Positions 28,207 to 34,397 of a DNA stretch of 64,000 bases are shown here, piece by piece; position 1 is the stretch's first letter, and each line of letters begins with the position of its first letter. The DNA lies in contig CAVYKI010000010.1 in the NCBI GenBank assembly GCA_963769025.1, positions 192,001 to 256,000 of the forward strand, given 5' to 3'. The translations under genes and the position numbers were made by a program. The notes below the pieces were generated by a model, which saw only the letters and a program-made list of their open reading frames with translations, made no database searches and was not told where the DNA came from. This stretch comes from an uncultured Verrucomicrobiae bacterium. GTDB lineage: Bacteria > Verrucomicrobiota > Verrucomicrobiia > Chthoniobacterales > Chthoniobacteraceae.

Positions 28207-30420
28207 ATGCCGGCATTCCAACTTTCCTCGAAATACACACCGCAAGGCGATCAGGCGCAGGCCATCGCGAAGCTGACGAAGTCCATCTCGGCCGGCAACC
28301 GGCACCAGACGCTGCTCGGCGTGACGGGCTCGGGCAAGACGTTCACCGCGGCGAATGTCATCCGCGAAATCGAACGGCCGACGCTCGTCATCTCGCACAA
28401 CAAGACGCTCGCCGCGCAGCTCTACTCGGAGTTCAAGCAGTTCTTCCCGGACAACGCGGTCGAGTATTTCGTCAGCTACTTCGATTACTACCAGCCCGAG
28501 GCCTACATCCCGCGCACGGACACCTACATCGAGAAGGATTCGTCCATCAACGAGGAGATCGAGCGCCTGCGCCTCTCCACGACTTCGTCGCTGCTCTCGC
28601 GGCGCGACGTGATCGTGGTCGCGAGCGTGTCGTGCATCTACGGCCTCGCGCTCGCCGGAGGATTTTCTCTGAACATGCTGCTCACGCTGAAAGTCGGCCA
28701 GAAAATCGACGCGCGAGATGGTGCTCAGCGAAGCTCGTGGACATGCTCTACGAGCGGAACGACATCGCCTTCGAGCGCGGCCACTTCCGCGTGCGCGGCG
28801 ACGTGGTCGAGGTGCATCCGGCGAACGAGGACGAGAGGCGATCCGCATCGAGTTCTTCGGCGACGAGGTCGATCGCATCACGCGCTTCGATCCGCTCACC
28901 GGGCATGTGAACGAGCAGCTCACGATGATCGACGCTCTATCCCGGCGAAGCAATTCGTGACGCCGCAGCGACAAGCTGCGCACCGCGCTGGTGACGATCC
29001 GCGAGGAGATGCGAGGAGCGCATCATCTTTTTCGAAAAGCACGGGCAGCTGCTCGAGGCGCAGCGCATCAAGAATGCGCACGGAATACGATCTGGAGATG
29101 ATGCAGGAGATGGGCTTTTGCAGCGGCATCGAAAACTACTCGCGCCATCTGAGCGGCCGCCCGCCGGGCTCGCGGCCCTACACGCTGCTCGACTTTTTCC
29201 CGCGCGATTTCCTGCTCGTGGTCGATGAAAGCCACGCGACCATCCCGCAGATCGGCGGCATGTATGAGGGCGACGCGTCGCGCAAAAACGACGCTCGTCG
29301 AATACGGCTTCCGCCTGCCGAGCGCGCTGGACAACCGGCCGCTGAAATTCCCCGAGTTCATGGAGATGACCGGCCAGACGATCTACATCAGCGCGACGCC
29401 GGCGGAGTTCGAGATCCGGAACAGCGTCGTCGGCAACACGAAGTATCTGCCCGCGAGCCGCACGCAGTTTGGCGGCGCGATTGAAGTGCCTGATTTCGTC
29501 GTGAGCGCGAACACCGACGTGCGGCCGAGCGGTCGCCATCGAGCCGATCGACAAGTTCGACGTCCACACGCCGGGCGCGCCGCTCGTCGTCGAGCAGATC
29601 ATCCGCCCGACCGGCCTGCTCGATCCGCAGATCACCATCCGCCCGCTCAAGGCGCAGATCGACGAGACGCTCGAACTCTGCCGCCAGCGCATCGAGAAGA
29701 GCGAGCGCGTCCTCATCACCACGCTCACGAAACGCACCGCCGAGGATCTCAGCGATTACCTCGGACGTCGGCCTGCAAGGTGCGCTACCTGCACAGCGAC
29801 ATCGATACGATCGAGCGCGTGGAAATCCTGCGCGCGCTGCGCGCCGCGGAGTTCGACATCCTCGTCGGCATCAATCTGCTCCGCGAAGGCCTCGACCTGC
29901 CCGAGGTCTCGCTCGTCTGCATCCTCGACGCCGACAAGGAAGGCTACCTCCGCTCGCAGACTTCGCTCATCCAGACCGCCGGCCGCGCCGCGCGCCACGT
30001 GAACGGCGCAGGTCTATCTCTTCGCCGACATGGTGACGAAGAGCATGCAGGCGCTGCTCGACATCACCGAATACCGCCGCGCGCGGCAGATGGAATACAA
30101 CGAGAAGCACGGCATCACGCCCACGCAGCGTGCAGCGCGCCGTGCAGGAAAGCCTGCACACGATTTTGAAAGGCCGCGAAATCGAATCCTCGGTCGTGAA
30201 CGAAGCCGGCGGCAATTTCTCCCTCAGCGAAACGCTGCGCGAACTGGAGGAGGAAATGATGCACGCCGCCGCGAATCTCGAATACGAAAAGGCCGCGCTC
30301 CTCCGCGACCAGATCGGCGAACTCAAGGCCGGCACCGGCCTCTCAAAGATCGAACCGAAGAAGCGCCCGGTCTCCTACGGAAAGCCGAAACGCGGCGCAG
30401 GCTCAAAGGCGCGGGCGTAG
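28207..30420 (+). CDS. uvrB: Excinuclease ABC subunit UvrB, many frameshifts (probably sequencing errors)
   Basis: [83 protein letters not shown] and the C-terminal UVR domain ([11 protein letters not shown]), spread over all three frames. Confidence 0.95.
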
Positions 30421-30491
30421 CGCGCCGCGCCCGTCTCCGCGCCCGTCCGCGTTTGTAACGCGGTCCGAGCAGGCCCGGGAGTGCTCGTACC

Positions 30492-30531
30492 AAAAGCAAA
30501 ACGCGCGAGGGCTTTCGCACCTCGCGCGTTT
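30492..30531 (-). terminator. Rho-independent terminator after rplL
   Basis: Minus strand AAACGCGCGAGG-TGCGAAAGC-CCTCGCGCGTTT followed by TGCTTTT. Confidence 0.8.
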
Positions 30532-30582
30532 GTGAAAGGAATCGTTCCGGCTCGAAAACCGGGTGGTTCCAGAGTGAGGAGA

Positions 30583-30969
30583 CTACTTGATCTCGACCTT
30601 GGCGCCTGCGGCCTCGAGCTTCTTCTTGATGTCTTCGGCTTCGGCCTTGGTCGCGCCTTCCTTGACGGTCTTCGGGGCGCCCTCGACGAGAGCCTTGGCA
30701 TCGGCGAGGCCGAGGCCGGGCACTGCGGCGCGGACTTCCTTGATGACGTTGATCTTGTTCGGGCCGGCTTCCTTGAGGACGACGTCGAATGCGGTCTTCT
30801 CTTCTGCGGGTGCGGCGGCTGCGCCTCCGCCACCGGCGGCGGGTGCTGCAGCGGCCACGGGGGCCGCGGCGCTCACGCCCCACTTGGTTTCGAGCTGTTT
30901 GACGAGATCAGCGACTTCCAGGACGGTGAGTCCGCTGAGCTGATCAACGATGGTGTTGATGTCTGCCAT
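30583..30969 (-). CDS. rplL: 50S ribosomal protein L7/L12, stand-alone
   Basis: [24 protein letters not shown], Ala/Gly hinge, [29 protein letters not shown] and GAKVEIK. Confidence 0.97.
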
Positions 30970-30992
30970 GATGTGTTTGTTTTCTTGCGGTG

Positions 30993-31132
30993 TCGTCGCC
31001 ACCCGAGGCTTCGGGCGAATTAAGGCCGGCTGCCACCAGCCCGACGAGGAACCATGTTTGGTTGTTTCCCTTTTGGACGGCCACCTTGCGGCGACCGTTT
31101 CCCACCGGATATGGCAGCGGTAGAAAAAGGGA
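30993..31132 (-). ncRNA. Candidate structured cis-regulatory 5' leader of rplL (two three-way junctions)
   Basis: Six helices can be paired by eye (see findings), including a GCAA-tetraloop hairpin. The structure starts at the predicted transcription start. Confidence 0.5.
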
Positions 31133-31137
31133 CGCGG

Positions 31138-31165
31138 AAACTAGTGGACTGCCCCGGGGTGTCAA
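31138..31165 (-). promoter_or_regulatory. Sigma70-type promoter for rplL
   Basis: Minus strand TTGACA (31165-31160), 16 nt, TAGTTT (31143-31138). Confidence 0.65.
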
Positions 31166-31278
31166 GCGGGCTTTTCCAGCGCGGGAAAGGCAGGACTCTC
31201 CGAAACGGTCCGCCAAGCGCATTCAGGGCGATTGACACCGGGATGACGGAGTTGTCTATTTCGCCAAAAGCTACTCCC

Positions 31279-32763
31279 ATGCACGACGACCTCCAGACCG
31301 AACATCACGCGGGACAAGAGCCGCAGCTCACGTGGTTTCAGAAATTCCAGCAGAAGCTCGCCGAGTCGCGATACTTCATGCTTTCCTGCGTCATTCACGC
31401 GGTGATCGTGATCCTCGCGGGATCGATCGTGCTTTATAAGGCAATTGTCGAGCCGCCGGATTTTGTCGCCGAGGGTGGTGACGGGCTGATTTCCGCGACG
31501 GACGATCTGACGCCGCCGCCGGAGACTCCCGCGGACGCAGTGCCCACCGAGCAGGTCGCACCGCAGGCACCGAACATTAACAGCCCGAACATCGACGTCA
31601 TCAGCACGACGGCGCAGACGAGCAGTTTCAAGGTCGCCCCGGCGCAGGTGCAGGTGAAAATCAATACCAACGCCTCCGATCTCGCGAAGGCGACTGGGAA
31701 TATCTCAAAGGCGATGGCCGGCGGGATGGGCGGTCTGCCTGGCACGATGCGCGGTCGCATGGGCACCGGCAGGGCAAAGGCGATGGATCAGAACAAGATG
31801 AAGTCGAAGACCGAGATGGCGGTAGTCAAGGGACTCAACTGGCTTCAGCAGAATCAGAATTCCGACGGTTCCTGGGGCGACGCCACCAAGGGCGCAATGA
31901 CCGGCCTCGCGCTGCTTTGCTTCCTCGGCCACGGCGAGACACCCGAGTCCCAGCAATATGGGCTGACGGTGAACCGGGCCGTCCAGTGGATCCTGGACAA
32001 CGGGACGAAGAACGAAGGCCGCCTGCACATGGCCAAGGCATTCAGCCAGTCCGGGGTCTATGAACACGGCATCTGCACCTACGCCCTCGGCGAGTATTAC
32101 ACGATGACCAAGGACGAACGCGTCGCGGAGCTGTTCAAGCAGGCCATCACTTACATCGTACAGGGGCAGGGCCCCGGCGGTGGCTGGATGTATTCCTACG
32201 ACAAGACGGCGGATGACCTCTCGGTGGGCGGGTGGCAGATCCAGGCGCTCAAGGCCGCGCACCTCAGCCAACTCAACATCTCCGGAGTCGATCAGGCACT
32301 CGACAAGGCCATCGCCTACATCGAACGCGTGAAAGGCCCGAAAGGCGGCTATGGATACCGCGAAGCCGCTGACAAGTACAGCCTCACCGGCGTCGGCATC
32401 CTCTGCCAGCTCTTCTGGAAAGGCGACCGCGGCGCGCTTCGCAAAGGCATGGAGTGGCTGCTCGACGAAACCGAGAAAAGCAAGCCCGTGAAGTACAAGG
32501 GCGAAGATGCGGACCTTTACGCCTGGTACTATCACACACAGGCGTGCCTCATGTTCGGCGGAAGCGCGTGGACCAAATGGAACCGCTGGTTCCAGGACGA
32601 GATCTGCGACGCTCAGAAAGAAGACGGAAGCTGGCCGGTCCCCGGCGGCAAAGCTCACGGCCCGCAGGCTGGTGAAAACATGACCGGCGCCGTGTACCGC
32701 ACCACGCTCTGCGTCCTGATGCTCGAGGTCTTCTACCGCTACATGCCGACGACACAGGGCTAG
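31279..32763 (+). CDS. Membrane-anchored prenyltransferase/squalene-oxidase-repeat (terpene cyclase-like alpha-barrel) protein, paralog 1
   Basis: N-terminal TM (YFMLSCVIHAVIVILAGSIVLY), low-complexity linker, QW-like repeats QNSDGSW, QGPGGGW and QKEDGSW, and terminal LEVFYRY. Confidence 0.82.
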   Translation: MHDDLQTEHHAGQEPQLTWFQKFQQKLAESRYFMLSCVIHAVIVILAGSIVLYKAIVEPPDFVAEGGDGLISATDDLTPPPETPADAVPTEQVAPQAPNINSPNIDVISTTAQTSSFKVAPAQVQVKINTNASDLAKATGNISKAMAGGMGGLPGTMRGRMGTGRAKAMDQNKMKSKTEMAVVKGLNWLQQNQNSDGSWGDATKGAMTGLALLCFLGHGETPESQQYGLTVNRAVQWILDNGTKNEGRLHMAKAFSQSGVYEHGICTYALGEYYTMTKDERVAELFKQAITYIVQGQGPGGGWMYSYDKTADDLSVGGWQIQALKAAHLSQLNISGVDQALDKAIAYIERVKGPKGGYGYREAADKYSLTGVGILCQLFWKGDRGALRKGMEWLLDETEKSKPVKYKGEDADLYAWYYHTQACLMFGGSAWTKWNRWFQDEICDAQKEDGSWPVPGGKAHGPQAGENMTGAVYRTTLCVLMLEVFYRYMPTTQG

Positions 32764-32825: not shown

Positions 32826-32927
32826 CCCGTCCGCTGTCCCCATGGGCGGCATCGATTACAAAGAGGTTAGCATGCCCTTCGCCGATTGACTGTCCGCACG
32901 GGCGCGCTCTGCTCTGCAGCAACTCCC

Positions 32928-34397
32928 ATGGCTACCTCCCTCCAGAACGGCCCGGAAAACGGGCTCCCCGATCACGAATCCCCCATCACGCGGTTGCGTC
33001 GAAGAATCGCCGAGTCGCGCTACTTCATGATGTCCCTGCTCGTTCACACGATTCTCGTGATCATCGCGGGTTCCATCGTGCTCTTCCAGACGGTGATGCC
33101 GGTGGAGGATTTCGTCTCCGCAGGCGCGGTCCCGGGAGTCGAGAATTTCCCCGCTCCCATCGAGCAGCCTCCCGAACATCCCCGCACGCAGGAAGAGTTT
33201 CGTGCGCAGCTCCCGGAGACCGGCGTCCCCGGCGTCAATCCCATCACCACGCAGGCACCTGTGCCGTTCGTCTGGAAACCCGGCACGCACGCGGGTCCGA
33301 TCGTCAGGCCGCCCAGCGTGCCGGGTTCCGACCTTCCGCGTGGGCTCGCCTCCGCCACGCCCGCGGGGATTCACTCGACTTTCATGCCACGTTTTGGCGA
33401 CGCCAAAACCACCATCGGCAAACAGAAAGGAATGACCGATAGGTCGCAACTCGCCGTGCAGCGGAGCCTGAAGTGGCTCCGCGACAATCAGAACGCCGAC
33501 GGCTCGTGGGGCGACGGCAACAAAGGCGCGATGACCGGCCTCGCCCTGCTTTGCTACCTCGGCTACGGCGAACTGCCCGACTCGAAGGACTACGGATACA
33601 CGATCAACGCCGCGATTCAGTGGCTCGTCGAAACCGGAACGAAATTCGAGGGCCGCCTCGGCATGGAAAACGCCTTCACGCAAAGCGGCGTGTATGAGCA
33701 CGGCATCGCCACCTACGCGCTCGGCGAGTACTACGCCCTCACGCACGACAAACGCGTACTGGAACTCCTCACGCAGGCCGTCGCGCACATCGTGCGAGGC
33801 CAGGGCCCCGGCGGCGGCTGGATGTATGGCTTCGACAAGACCGCCAACGATCTTTCCGTGGGCGGCTGGCAGATTCAGGCGCTCAAGGCCGCACATCTCA
33901 CCGGGCTCAAGCTCCCCGGCGTGGACCAGGCGCTCGACAAGGCCATGAGCTACCTCGAAAGTGTGAAAGGTCCGAAAGGCGGCTACGGCTACCGCGCTGC
34001 CGAGGATCGCTACAGCCTCAGCGGCATTGGCATCCTCAGCCGGCGCTTTTGGAAAGGCGAACGCGGCGAACTCCGCAAAGGCATGGATTGGATCCTCGAC
34101 GAAACCGCGAAAGCGCACCCCGTGAAGTACGCGAGCCAAAATGCGGATCTCTACGCGTGGTATTATCACACCCAGGCCAGCCTCATGTTTGGCGGCGCGG
34201 CGTGGACGAAATGGAACCGCTGGTTCCAGGATGAACTTTGCAACGCGCAAAACACCGACGGCAGTTGGCCCATCCCCGGCGCAAAAGGCCACGGTCCGCA
34301 GGCCGACGCCGGGCGGACCGGGCAGGTGTACCGCACCACGCTCTGCACGCTGATGCTCGAAGTCTTCTACCGCTACATGCCCACCAACCAGGGCTGA
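32928..34397 (+). CDS. Membrane-anchored prenyltransferase/squalene-oxidase-repeat protein, paralog 2
   Basis: Same architecture as paralog 1; shares long exact blocks (DLSVGGWQIQALKAAHL, DLYAWYYHTQA, WTKWNRWFQDE, MLEVFYRYMPT). Confidence 0.82.
   Translation: MATSLQNGPENGLPDHESPITRLRRRIAESRYFMMSLLVHTILVIIAGSIVLFQTVMPVEDFVSAGAVPGVENFPAPIEQPPEHPRTQEEFRAQLPETGVPGVNPITTQAPVPFVWKPGTHAGPIVRPPSVPGSDLPRGLASATPAGIHSTFMPRFGDAKTTIGKQKGMTDRSQLAVQRSLKWLRDNQNADGSWGDGNKGAMTGLALLCYLGYGELPDSKDYGYTINAAIQWLVETGTKFEGRLGMENAFTQSGVYEHGIATYALGEYYALTHDKRVLELLTQAVAHIVRGQGPGGGWMYGFDKTANDLSVGGWQIQALKAAHLTGLKLPGVDQALDKAMSYLESVKGPKGGYGYRAAEDRYSLSGIGILSRRFWKGERGELRKGMDWILDETAKAHPVKYASQNADLYAWYYHTQASLMFGGAAWTKWNRWFQDELCNAQNTDGSWPIPGAKGHGPQADAGRTGQVYRTTLCTLMLEVFYRYMPTNQG

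Follow-up and report, generated by a model that had tools for sequence, protein, structure and literature searches.

The 64,000-nucleotide (nt) stretch of DNA analyzed here (the window; positions 192,001 to 256,000 of contig CAVYKI010000010.1, assembly GCA_963769025.1, from an uncultured bacterium of the family Chthoniobacteraceae, order Chthoniobacterales, class Verrucomicrobiia) carries, on its minus strand and directly upstream of rplL, the gene for ribosomal protein bL12 (L12), a structured single-copy RNA element of ~65 nt that is part of the rplL transcript. We hold it highly probable that this element, a three-way junction referred to below as domain 2, is a real, conserved, cis-acting leader of rplL. 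It represents a new family within the ribosomal-protein leaders, unusual in its position inside an operon and in serving L12 alone. The structure and its conservation are well supported and about as solid as computation allows, and the mechanism is a candidate.

Unconstrained minimum free energy (MFE) folding of positions 30967-31140 (minus strand) yielded -68.9 kcal/mol, compared with -55.2 +/- 3.8 kcal/mol for 200 dinucleotide shuffles (z = -3.61), 0/200 of which folded as well. An earlier reading of the same letters (the first-pass annotation) had drawn two adjacent domains in this place; all of its helices exist at their minus-strand coordinates, in the sequence as well as in the MFE fold, which recovers both domains and adds an outer GGU/ACC extension to the stem of domain 2. 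Within domain 2 (30989-31053, defined by the MFE fold, RNAalifold and pair counts), the basal stem P1 comprises an outer part (GGU/ACC, 31053-31051 / 30991-30989) and an inner part (UCGUCG/CGACGA, 31047-31042 / 30998-30993) separated by a 3-nt bulge, UCC (31050-31048, opposite C30992). P1 encloses hairpin P2a (31041-31024, loop GGCA), the linker UUAAUU (31023-31018) and hairpin P2b (31017-31000, loop AGCC), with G30999 left unpaired. The stem is followed by a 19-nt A-rich spacer (30970-30988) that leads to the AUG and, as previously described, is devoid of a Shine-Dalgarno sequence. The preference of the first-pass annotation for the minus strand was likewise borne out by a covariance model, which scored 98.6 bits at this place vs. 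9.0 bits on the opposite strand.

Covariation and conservation in relatives, which had been set beforehand as a test of the proposed structure, proved strong by RNAalifold, pair counts and a wider alignment. Domain 2 is recognizable in all 30 rplL-upstream loci (29 from other genomes, spanning 11 families of the order) that were aligned by plain MAFFT without fitting to any structure (alignment A1), and RNAalifold run on A1 independently predicted the same junction, with 21 pairs, 14 of them supported by compensatory changes. Pair counts for the 23-pair structure over the 26 distinct rows of A1 gave 96.2% of cells pairing and changes on both sides in 15/23 pairs; none of 500 shuffles reached any of five pairing measures, and in a control in which the partners were slid by 1-3 columns the pairing fell to 33-52%. 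A taxonomically wider alignment (29 sequences), which was fitted to a covariance model and is hence biased towards the structure, showed double-sided changes in 21/23 pairs, and 94.0% of its cells pair; the only two never-varying pairs are the G-C pairs that close the junction (columns 19-83 and 20-47).

Beside these variable stems, several unpaired positions are fixed. The linker between the two hairpins reads U-N-A-A-W-U, with the U and both A residues invariant in 30/30 sequences of A1; the central GC of both tetraloops (N-G-C-N), which cap hairpins of 7 bp each, is invariant in the same alignment; and the UCC bulge is retained in distant families, including 2/3 matches from family f18 (families are denoted by our own numbers). 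Covarying stems combined with fixed junction and unpaired nucleotides point to an RNA that is recognized by something specific, and it is this pattern of fixed closing pairs, linker, loops and bulge that suggests specific recognition of domain 2. A kissing interaction of the two NGCN tetraloops was considered and rejected: covariation at the outer loop positions does not exceed that of shuffles (the loop combinations pair in 19/21 and 10/21 cases, figures matched by shuffles in 600 and 947 of 2000 trials), and the central GC is uninformative because it is invariant.

Domain 2 is conserved through the order and is present in a diverged form in other families of the class. When A1 was turned into a covariance model (R1), this model matched 140/151 genomes drawn from the order, and in 139 of these 140 the match was the only one; in the two-copy genome the matches are on different contigs with similar scores (G138:C56:45711-45788 and G138:C35:23068-23145), which could mean that the rplL locus is duplicated or that the bin is mixed. 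The genomes of this draw missed by R1 include both representatives of genus g19 and both 0.9-Mb genomes of family f9. The latter (G032 and G047; loci L205 and L206), each a single contig, possess rplL and have no match to R1 or to R2, a second model that includes families f18 and f20; one of these reduced genomes has an AT-rich rplJ-rplL spacer of 314 nt, which may be a decayed leader. At the level of the phylum, R1 matched 12/151 genomes (E<=0.01), two of which, weak and with neither rplJ nor rplL nearby, are taken as false. R2 matched 79/151 genomes of the class, with coverage varying by family (18/18 in f20, 16/17 in f59, 6/11 in f18 and 0/11 in f22). A scan for the exact pattern, covering one genome for each prokaryote species, returned at least 120 loci; the 80 titles among the matches listed were all Verrucomicrobiota, and the taxa among the matches listed were Chthoniobacter, Chthoniobacterales, Terrimicrobiaceae, 'Spartobacteria', Akkermansiaceae, Luteolibacter, Haloferula, Rubritalea tangerina and Verrucomicrobiaceae.

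For 20 additional genomes, the rplJ-rplL spacers were scanned with R1 without filters and also read by eye. A shorter version of the same design (YUAGG-hairpin-CUUAAAY-hairpin-GCUAR) was recognized by eye in families f17, f18, f19, f21 and f23, and a junction with a different linker in one of the two f22 spacers. The spacers of f28 and f39 contain strong hairpins unrelated to domain 2, and the sole f25 spacer read is just 38 nt long. Three motif-free spacers (L211 of f28, L212 of f39 and L203 of f22), 111-268 nt in length, fold into other shapes with MFE values from -45 to -69 kcal/mol, and the rplJ-rplL spacer of motif-free Verrucomicrobiota families may thus house other leader classes.

The element is consistently associated with rplL. 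Among 59 model matches (59 genomes), 57 are followed by rplL at a distance of 4-88 nt from the end of the match, and the match is directly upstream of rplL in 25/26 genomes scored in both of two scans, with orientation and place of the element constant relative to the gene. In 50/57 loci rplL starts 4-15 nt past the model match, i.e., about 10-21 nt past the P1 stem; seven loci (L025, L027, L041, L043, L045, L052 and L057) contain an extra hairpin-forming stretch (46-88 nt) before rplL. Members of the order show no Shine-Dalgarno sequence between the element and rplL; in families f17, f19 and f21 an AAGGAG or AGGAGG lies 0-3 nt past the stem, and in f18 a GAAAGG is found a few bases further. 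The upstream neighbor of the element differs between loci, and the element stays with rplL whether or not rplJ adjoins: rplJ is upstream in 43 loci, and the 14 loci without it all belong to the genus of the genome studied here, in which a stand-alone rplL is common to 17/21 sampled genomes. Among the 29 loci of other genomes in A1, the element resides in the rplJ-rplL spacer in 13, namely in four loci of this genus (L019-L022) and in all nine of other families, and the end of an L10-like reading frame is readable just upstream in most rplJ-linked loci. Its occurrence between rplJ and rplL in other families as well as in the four genus members identifies the rplJ-rplL spacer as the ancestral site.

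The description of this gene as an orphan rplL was correct: a single rplL match was found in the entire 5.3-Mb, 13-contig assembly, and rplJ is on a different contig, 15 nt after rplA. The comparison of gene order shows the orphan rplL to be the derived state, which arose in one subclade of the genus when rplL moved together with its leader and gained a putative promoter. The corresponding promoter-like pair, recognized by conservation at 31138-31165 (minus strand), consists of TTGACA (31165-31160) and TAGTTT (31143-31138) separated by 16 nt and would start a transcript near 31131-31135, at the foot of the upstream domain (domain 1). A pair of the form TTG[AC]C[AT] / 16-17 nt / [TC]AnnnT, at a fixed distance of 19-20 nt from the loop of the first hairpin of that domain (hairpin 1a), is present in 17/17 orphan loci and in 0/4 rplJ-linked loci of the genus, from which we conclude that this putative promoter was gained at relocation. 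It appears to be placed so that the primary transcript would begin where the post-rplJ leader begins. The first-pass claim that domain 1 starts at a predicted transcription start site gains a conserved promoter-like pair just upstream in all orphan loci, and is left without a consensus-scan call. As to transcript data, none of the public RNA runs holds more than 27% of the sampled words; metatranscriptome contigs of relatives (four datasets) start in rplL and cross the leader as far as about 31119 and 31143, with none going beyond. This is a weak hint at most; contigs cannot show RNA ends or levels, and uncovered stretches carry no meaning.

Domain 1 (31067-31132, minus strand; fold z = -3.36) precedes domain 2 and is separated from it by an A/C-rich unstructured linker (31054-31066, unpaired or weakly paired in the fold), the composition of which is kept in relatives and the sequence of which is not. 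In the fold, an enclosing helix, UCCCUUUU/AAAAGGGA (31132-31125 / 31074-31067), surrounds hairpin 1a (31123-31102, with a 10-nt loop, CUGCCAUAUC) and hairpin 1b (31098-31077, with a GCAA loop). Both hairpins are found in 15/18 folded relatives from the genus, and their stems vary with pairing kept (ACCG/CGGU, GCUG/CGGC, GCUG/CAGC), whereas the enclosing helix is found in only 10/18. The hairpin 1a loop contains CUGCCA in 21/21 genus sequences, and in 15/21 the apex of hairpin 1b reads CG-NRA-G; in the rplJ-linked members of the genus, a U-run pairs into hairpin 1a instead. The upstream regions of the sampled loci outside the genus have no counterpart with domain 1 sequence, and there a different single hairpin precedes the A/C-rich linker. 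Of the two tandem three-way junctions originally proposed, the second is thus the widely conserved one, while the first corresponds to two genus-level hairpins and, judged by the folds of relatives, appears as a three-way junction only as a subclade feature, not a family-wide one. Most likely, domain 1 protects the 5' end of the transcript. The CUGCCA of the hairpin 1a loop (31112-31117) is complementary to the UGGCAG of the P2a apex (31031-31036, both on the minus strand), each being present in 21/21 sequences of the genus, and a contact or an alternative pairing between them could form. The match extends to seven bases (loop GCUGCCA vs. apex UGGCAGC), and seven-base matches arise in 16-41 of 200 shuffles; no consistent counterpart of this complementarity is seen outside the genus, and covariation is uninformative because both sides are invariant within it.

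No known RNA family accounts for the leader, as the first-pass annotation had surmised. Searches against Rfam 15 were performed for the entire window at the gathering score, for a 1-kb region (30500-31500) at E<=10 and for 15 relatives' loci at E<=1; the window yielded two tRNAs only, and no family, riboswitch classes included, convincingly matched the leader in any of these searches. Matches to Pseudomon-groES (16.9 bits, cut-off 50) and to a frameshift-site model (16.8 bits, cut-off 40) in the 1-kb region were dismissed as chance-level; the relatives' loci gave a single PhotoRC-I match, below threshold. The most relevant known family, L10_leader (RF00557), was not matched in 30500-31500 (E<=10), in the whole genome (E<=1) or in 41 genomes of the class (E<=0.01) by a model that is itself narrow, detecting 9/14 (E<=1) and 4/14 (E<=0.01) control genomes. 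The element is not a member of this family. Moreover, the rplA-rplJ gap is just 2-45 nt in 43/43 loci, which leaves no room for an L10-type leader before rplJ. The idea of a displaced L10 leader, according to which presence of the element would be anticorrelated with a long rplA-rplJ gap, was rejected since families without the element are mostly short-gapped too and offer no contrast. Full-text literature searches, supplementary files aside, turned up neither an rplL leader nor any ribosomal leader described from Verrucomicrobia, and a term search of the main text of the ribosomal-leader survey by Eckert & Weinberg 2020 (PMC7247131) gave no L10, L12, rplJ or Verrucomicrobia entry.

A comparison with known systems provides some orientation on the nature of the element. 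According to the accessible parts of the respective reports, the known operators of the L10(L12)4 complex are located before rplJ and mimic the stalk base of 23S rRNA, using a kink-turn and an unpaired UAA or two adenosines; in the kink-turn, tandem sheared G-A pairs come after a bulge of 3 nt (PMC4538822, PMC3616713, PMC10931766). The element shares with these rplJL leaders (RF00557; E. coli, Bacillus) the same operon and the same protein pair as well as a helix interrupted by a bulge of 3 nt; the U(N)AA of its unpaired linker may be the counterpart of the UAA in known targets, and it has a junction in common with those L10 leaders in which, as far as the available text of PMC3616713 goes, the bulge opens into a second hairpin. 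It differs from them in being located after rplJ and before rplL, in having no kink-turn, no model match and no terminator or antiterminator following, and in that it would control rplL alone. A resemblance is also seen to helices 42-44 of the organism's own 23S rRNA, the stalk base: both are three-way junctions with a 3-nt bulge in the 5' strand 4-6 bp below the junction, a GG entering the first hairpin and a UUAAA-type single strand joining the hairpins (rRNA ...GA-CAA-UGAGG[hairpin]UUUAAAC[hairpin]CUCA-UC... vs. element GGU-UCC-UCGUCGG[hairpin]CUUAAUU[hairpin]GCGACGA-C-ACC). A GGCAGCC common to the element in this genus and to 23S helix 43 is not kept elsewhere (loops GGCU, AGCU, AGCG), and, unlike helices 43 and 44 with their large interacting loops, the hairpins of the element are short and capped by simple tetraloops. 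A precedent for a three-helix-junction operator that imitates an rRNA junction, and is thought to block ribosome entry, is provided by the S15 leaders of Geobacillus and Thermus (PMC10931766, accessible text); protein, gene and sequence differ, and the parallel is an analogy of design without homology.

Taking these features together with the position of the element, we consider a protein-binding feedback operator to be the leading explanation and about an even prospect. The L10(L12)n stalk complex is the first, tentative candidate for the binding protein, and L11 or L1 would be less likely than this complex. In such a mechanism, a shortage of 23S rRNA would leave a stalk or GTPase-centre protein unbound; this protein would then attach to the junction and keep the 30S subunit off the adjacent rplL start, providing feedback on L12 synthesis. 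The placement of the element fits occlusion of the start site, which lies 10-21 nt away in 50/57 loci, with the Shine-Dalgarno sequence abutting the stem elsewhere. A covarying conserved structure on the sense strand immediately upstream of a ribosomal-protein gene is also what is broadly expected of a ribosomal leader, and no other stalk-protein operator was seen, given the rplA-rplJ gaps of 2-45 nt (43/43) and the unmatched L10_leader in the genome and in 41 genomes of the class. The original suggestion of a cis-regulatory RNA for rplL stands inasmuch as the leader stays with rplL, as expected of a cis-acting element; its regulatory part is something that we infer.

A number of observations weigh against such an operator. 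A gap of 46-88 nt containing an extra hairpin separates the element from rplL in 7/57 loci, so that simple steric blocking cannot be general, and about half of the class draw (72/151) is without an R2 match. There is no kink-turn: the pairs flanking the UCC bulge are covarying Watson-Crick pairs, not tandem G-A (in the wider alignment, pair 13-91 is UA in 21 sequences, CG in 2, GC in 2 and AU in 1, and pair 15-89 is CG in 14, UA in 5, GC in 3 and UG in 2). Models R1 and R2, applied without filters to the organism's own rRNA locus, miss the stalk base (the best scores, 8-9 bits, fall elsewhere), and the likeness to 23S rRNA is therefore one of outline only. The narrowness of the RF00557 model means that its silence says little, and a standard sigma-70 consensus scan calls no promoter in 30400-31400, because the -10 hexamer of the pair described above is TAGTTT. 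Finally, the conserved NGCN loops are left unexplained by the operator model, and operator binding and regulation are themselves predictions from comparative analysis.

The main rival explanation, which we regard as possible but well short of probable, dispenses with a protein sensor: the L12:L10 ratio would be set by a constitutive element that acts in processing, in message stability or as an enhancer. Cleavage of the rplKAJL transcript in a U/A-rich region immediately downstream of rplJ would leave domain 1 and the junction as the stable 5' end of a longer-lived rplL message, and the A-rich start region, which has no Shine-Dalgarno sequence, would be kept free of upstream pairing, with the result that L12 is made 4-6x as fast as L10. 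A comparable arrangement comes from a methanogen, for which the accessible text of PMC5499594 reports that cleavage in the rplJ-rplL spacer produces a longer-lived, ~2-fold better translated rplL message and proposes this as the driver of the 1:4 ratio. The system described there, that of Methanolobus psychrophilus, resembles the present one in its long structured rplJ-rplL spacer, the handling of which raises translation of rplL relative to rplJ; it differs in being archaeal and in that the structure is removed endonucleolytically, and the same text reports no conserved junction motif. Several features of the loci studied here are in line with this explanation: the promoter of the orphan clade would start the transcript where the post-rplJ leader begins, as if copying a processed transcript, a conserved AUUUUC stretch and then a hairpin follow right after the rplJ stop in several families, and unpaired A/C-rich tracts flank the junction. 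However, an insulator or stabilizer should keep pairing and not sequence, whereas here the sequence itself is fixed across families, in the junction and bulge as well as in both loops; furthermore, the processing site in the spacer is only postulated, and the metatranscriptome contigs of relatives cannot show RNA ends.

Two variants of a sensory function appear improbable. A riboswitch-like sensor would be a purine-type three-way junction that binds a small molecule or a trans factor reporting the growth state and thereby tunes L12. Its invariant junction nucleotides and closing pairs, its two hairpins of 7 bp, the NGCN loops of which could make contact through G-C pairs, and its position adjoining the start site would suit such a device, but an association solely with rplL is the pattern of protein-sensing ribosomal leaders, the junction offers just 7 unpaired nucleotides for a pocket, no Rfam riboswitch is matched, the outer loop positions lack covariation beyond chance, the versions in family f18 are without GC loops, and nothing beyond the architecture lends positive support. 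Comparably improbable is a junction acting as a switch that reads a growth signal, be it a small molecule such as an alarmone or nucleotide or the condition of the stalk complex itself, and sets L12 independently of L10. That the element is unrelated to rplL expression, being an independent small RNA, an rplJ-rplL terminator or attenuator, or a chance GC-rich fold, is largely refuted and very improbable. GC-rich DNA does fold readily and the element does lie between two genes, but it travelled with rplL away from rplJ, its covariation is far above that of shuffles, it is single-copy with constant orientation and place, and no stem is followed by a U-run, A-rich sequence being found there instead. 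An intrinsic terminator or attenuator was specifically rejected, since A/C-rich sequence follows the stems of both domains and the only terminator-like site in 30400-31400 comes after rplL. Coding sequence was rejected as the identity of the element as well.

The gene served by the leader, rplL (30583-30969, minus strand; 128 amino acids, aa), was identified from the list of open reading frames (ORFs) and from Pfam, both L12 domains being present in its product (Ribosomal_L12_N, 72.2 bits; Ribosomal_L12, 99.4 bits). It is followed by a terminator-like hairpin and T-run detected by a scan (30493-30520, minus strand; stem 30520-30503, then GTTTTGCTTT), which is weak evidence when taken alone (1 site in 30400-31400 vs. 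a shuffle mean of 1.3). In this genome the rplKAJL-rpoBC cluster is split into three pieces, with rplL alone in the window; the genes after rplA-rplJ (G000:C3:936878-940153) look, by eye, like those for S15 and polynucleotide phosphorylase, and rpoB is ~810 kb from rplJ on the same contig. On the other side of rplL, a uvrB-like gene (recognized by eye; 28207-30420, plus strand) is split over three overlapping frames (28207-29484, 29225-30169 and 30130-30420), and rpoB is likewise matched in several frames (G000:C3:126485-128054), which suggests indel errors of the assembly, not real pseudogenes; such errors may also be a cause of the 83% completeness figure. Divergent from rplL are two tandem paralogous genes of ~500 aa (31243-32763 and 32886-34397, plus strand), each with an N-terminal hydrophobic segment and weak or borderline matches to Pfam DUF6288 (20.5 and 29.3 bits). 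For the plus-strand ORF that overlaps the leader (from 31054), comparison with its paralogue places the most likely start at 31243 or beyond.

L12 is the one ribosomal protein needed in 4-6 copies per ribosome, and its excess over the products of a shared operon has largely been attributed to unexplained differences in translation initiation. The covariation-supported element described here sits where the difference between L10 and L12 output must be made, and its conservation extends over a large group that has been little studied and to which the cultured Akkermansia, Chthoniobacter, Rubritalea and Luteolibacter belong. An Rfam entry is merited whether the element turns out to be a feedback operator or a constitutive processing or enhancer element, and the seed alignment and model provide a starting point. 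Should the junction prove to be a switch, the cell could adjust how many L12 dimers its ribosomes carry, and the relocation of rplL with the element intact would constitute a natural experiment in which control of L12 dosage is autonomous. If the processing or enhancer explanation holds, the element would be a bacterial counterpart to the archaeal model of rplJ-rplL processing. If, on the other hand, the stalk complex does bind the junction, this would add a ribosomal leader for a phylum with none found described in the literature searched, and would reveal a second, independently evolved feedback by stalk proteins, acting within the operon and on L12 alone, without the kink-turn used elsewhere.

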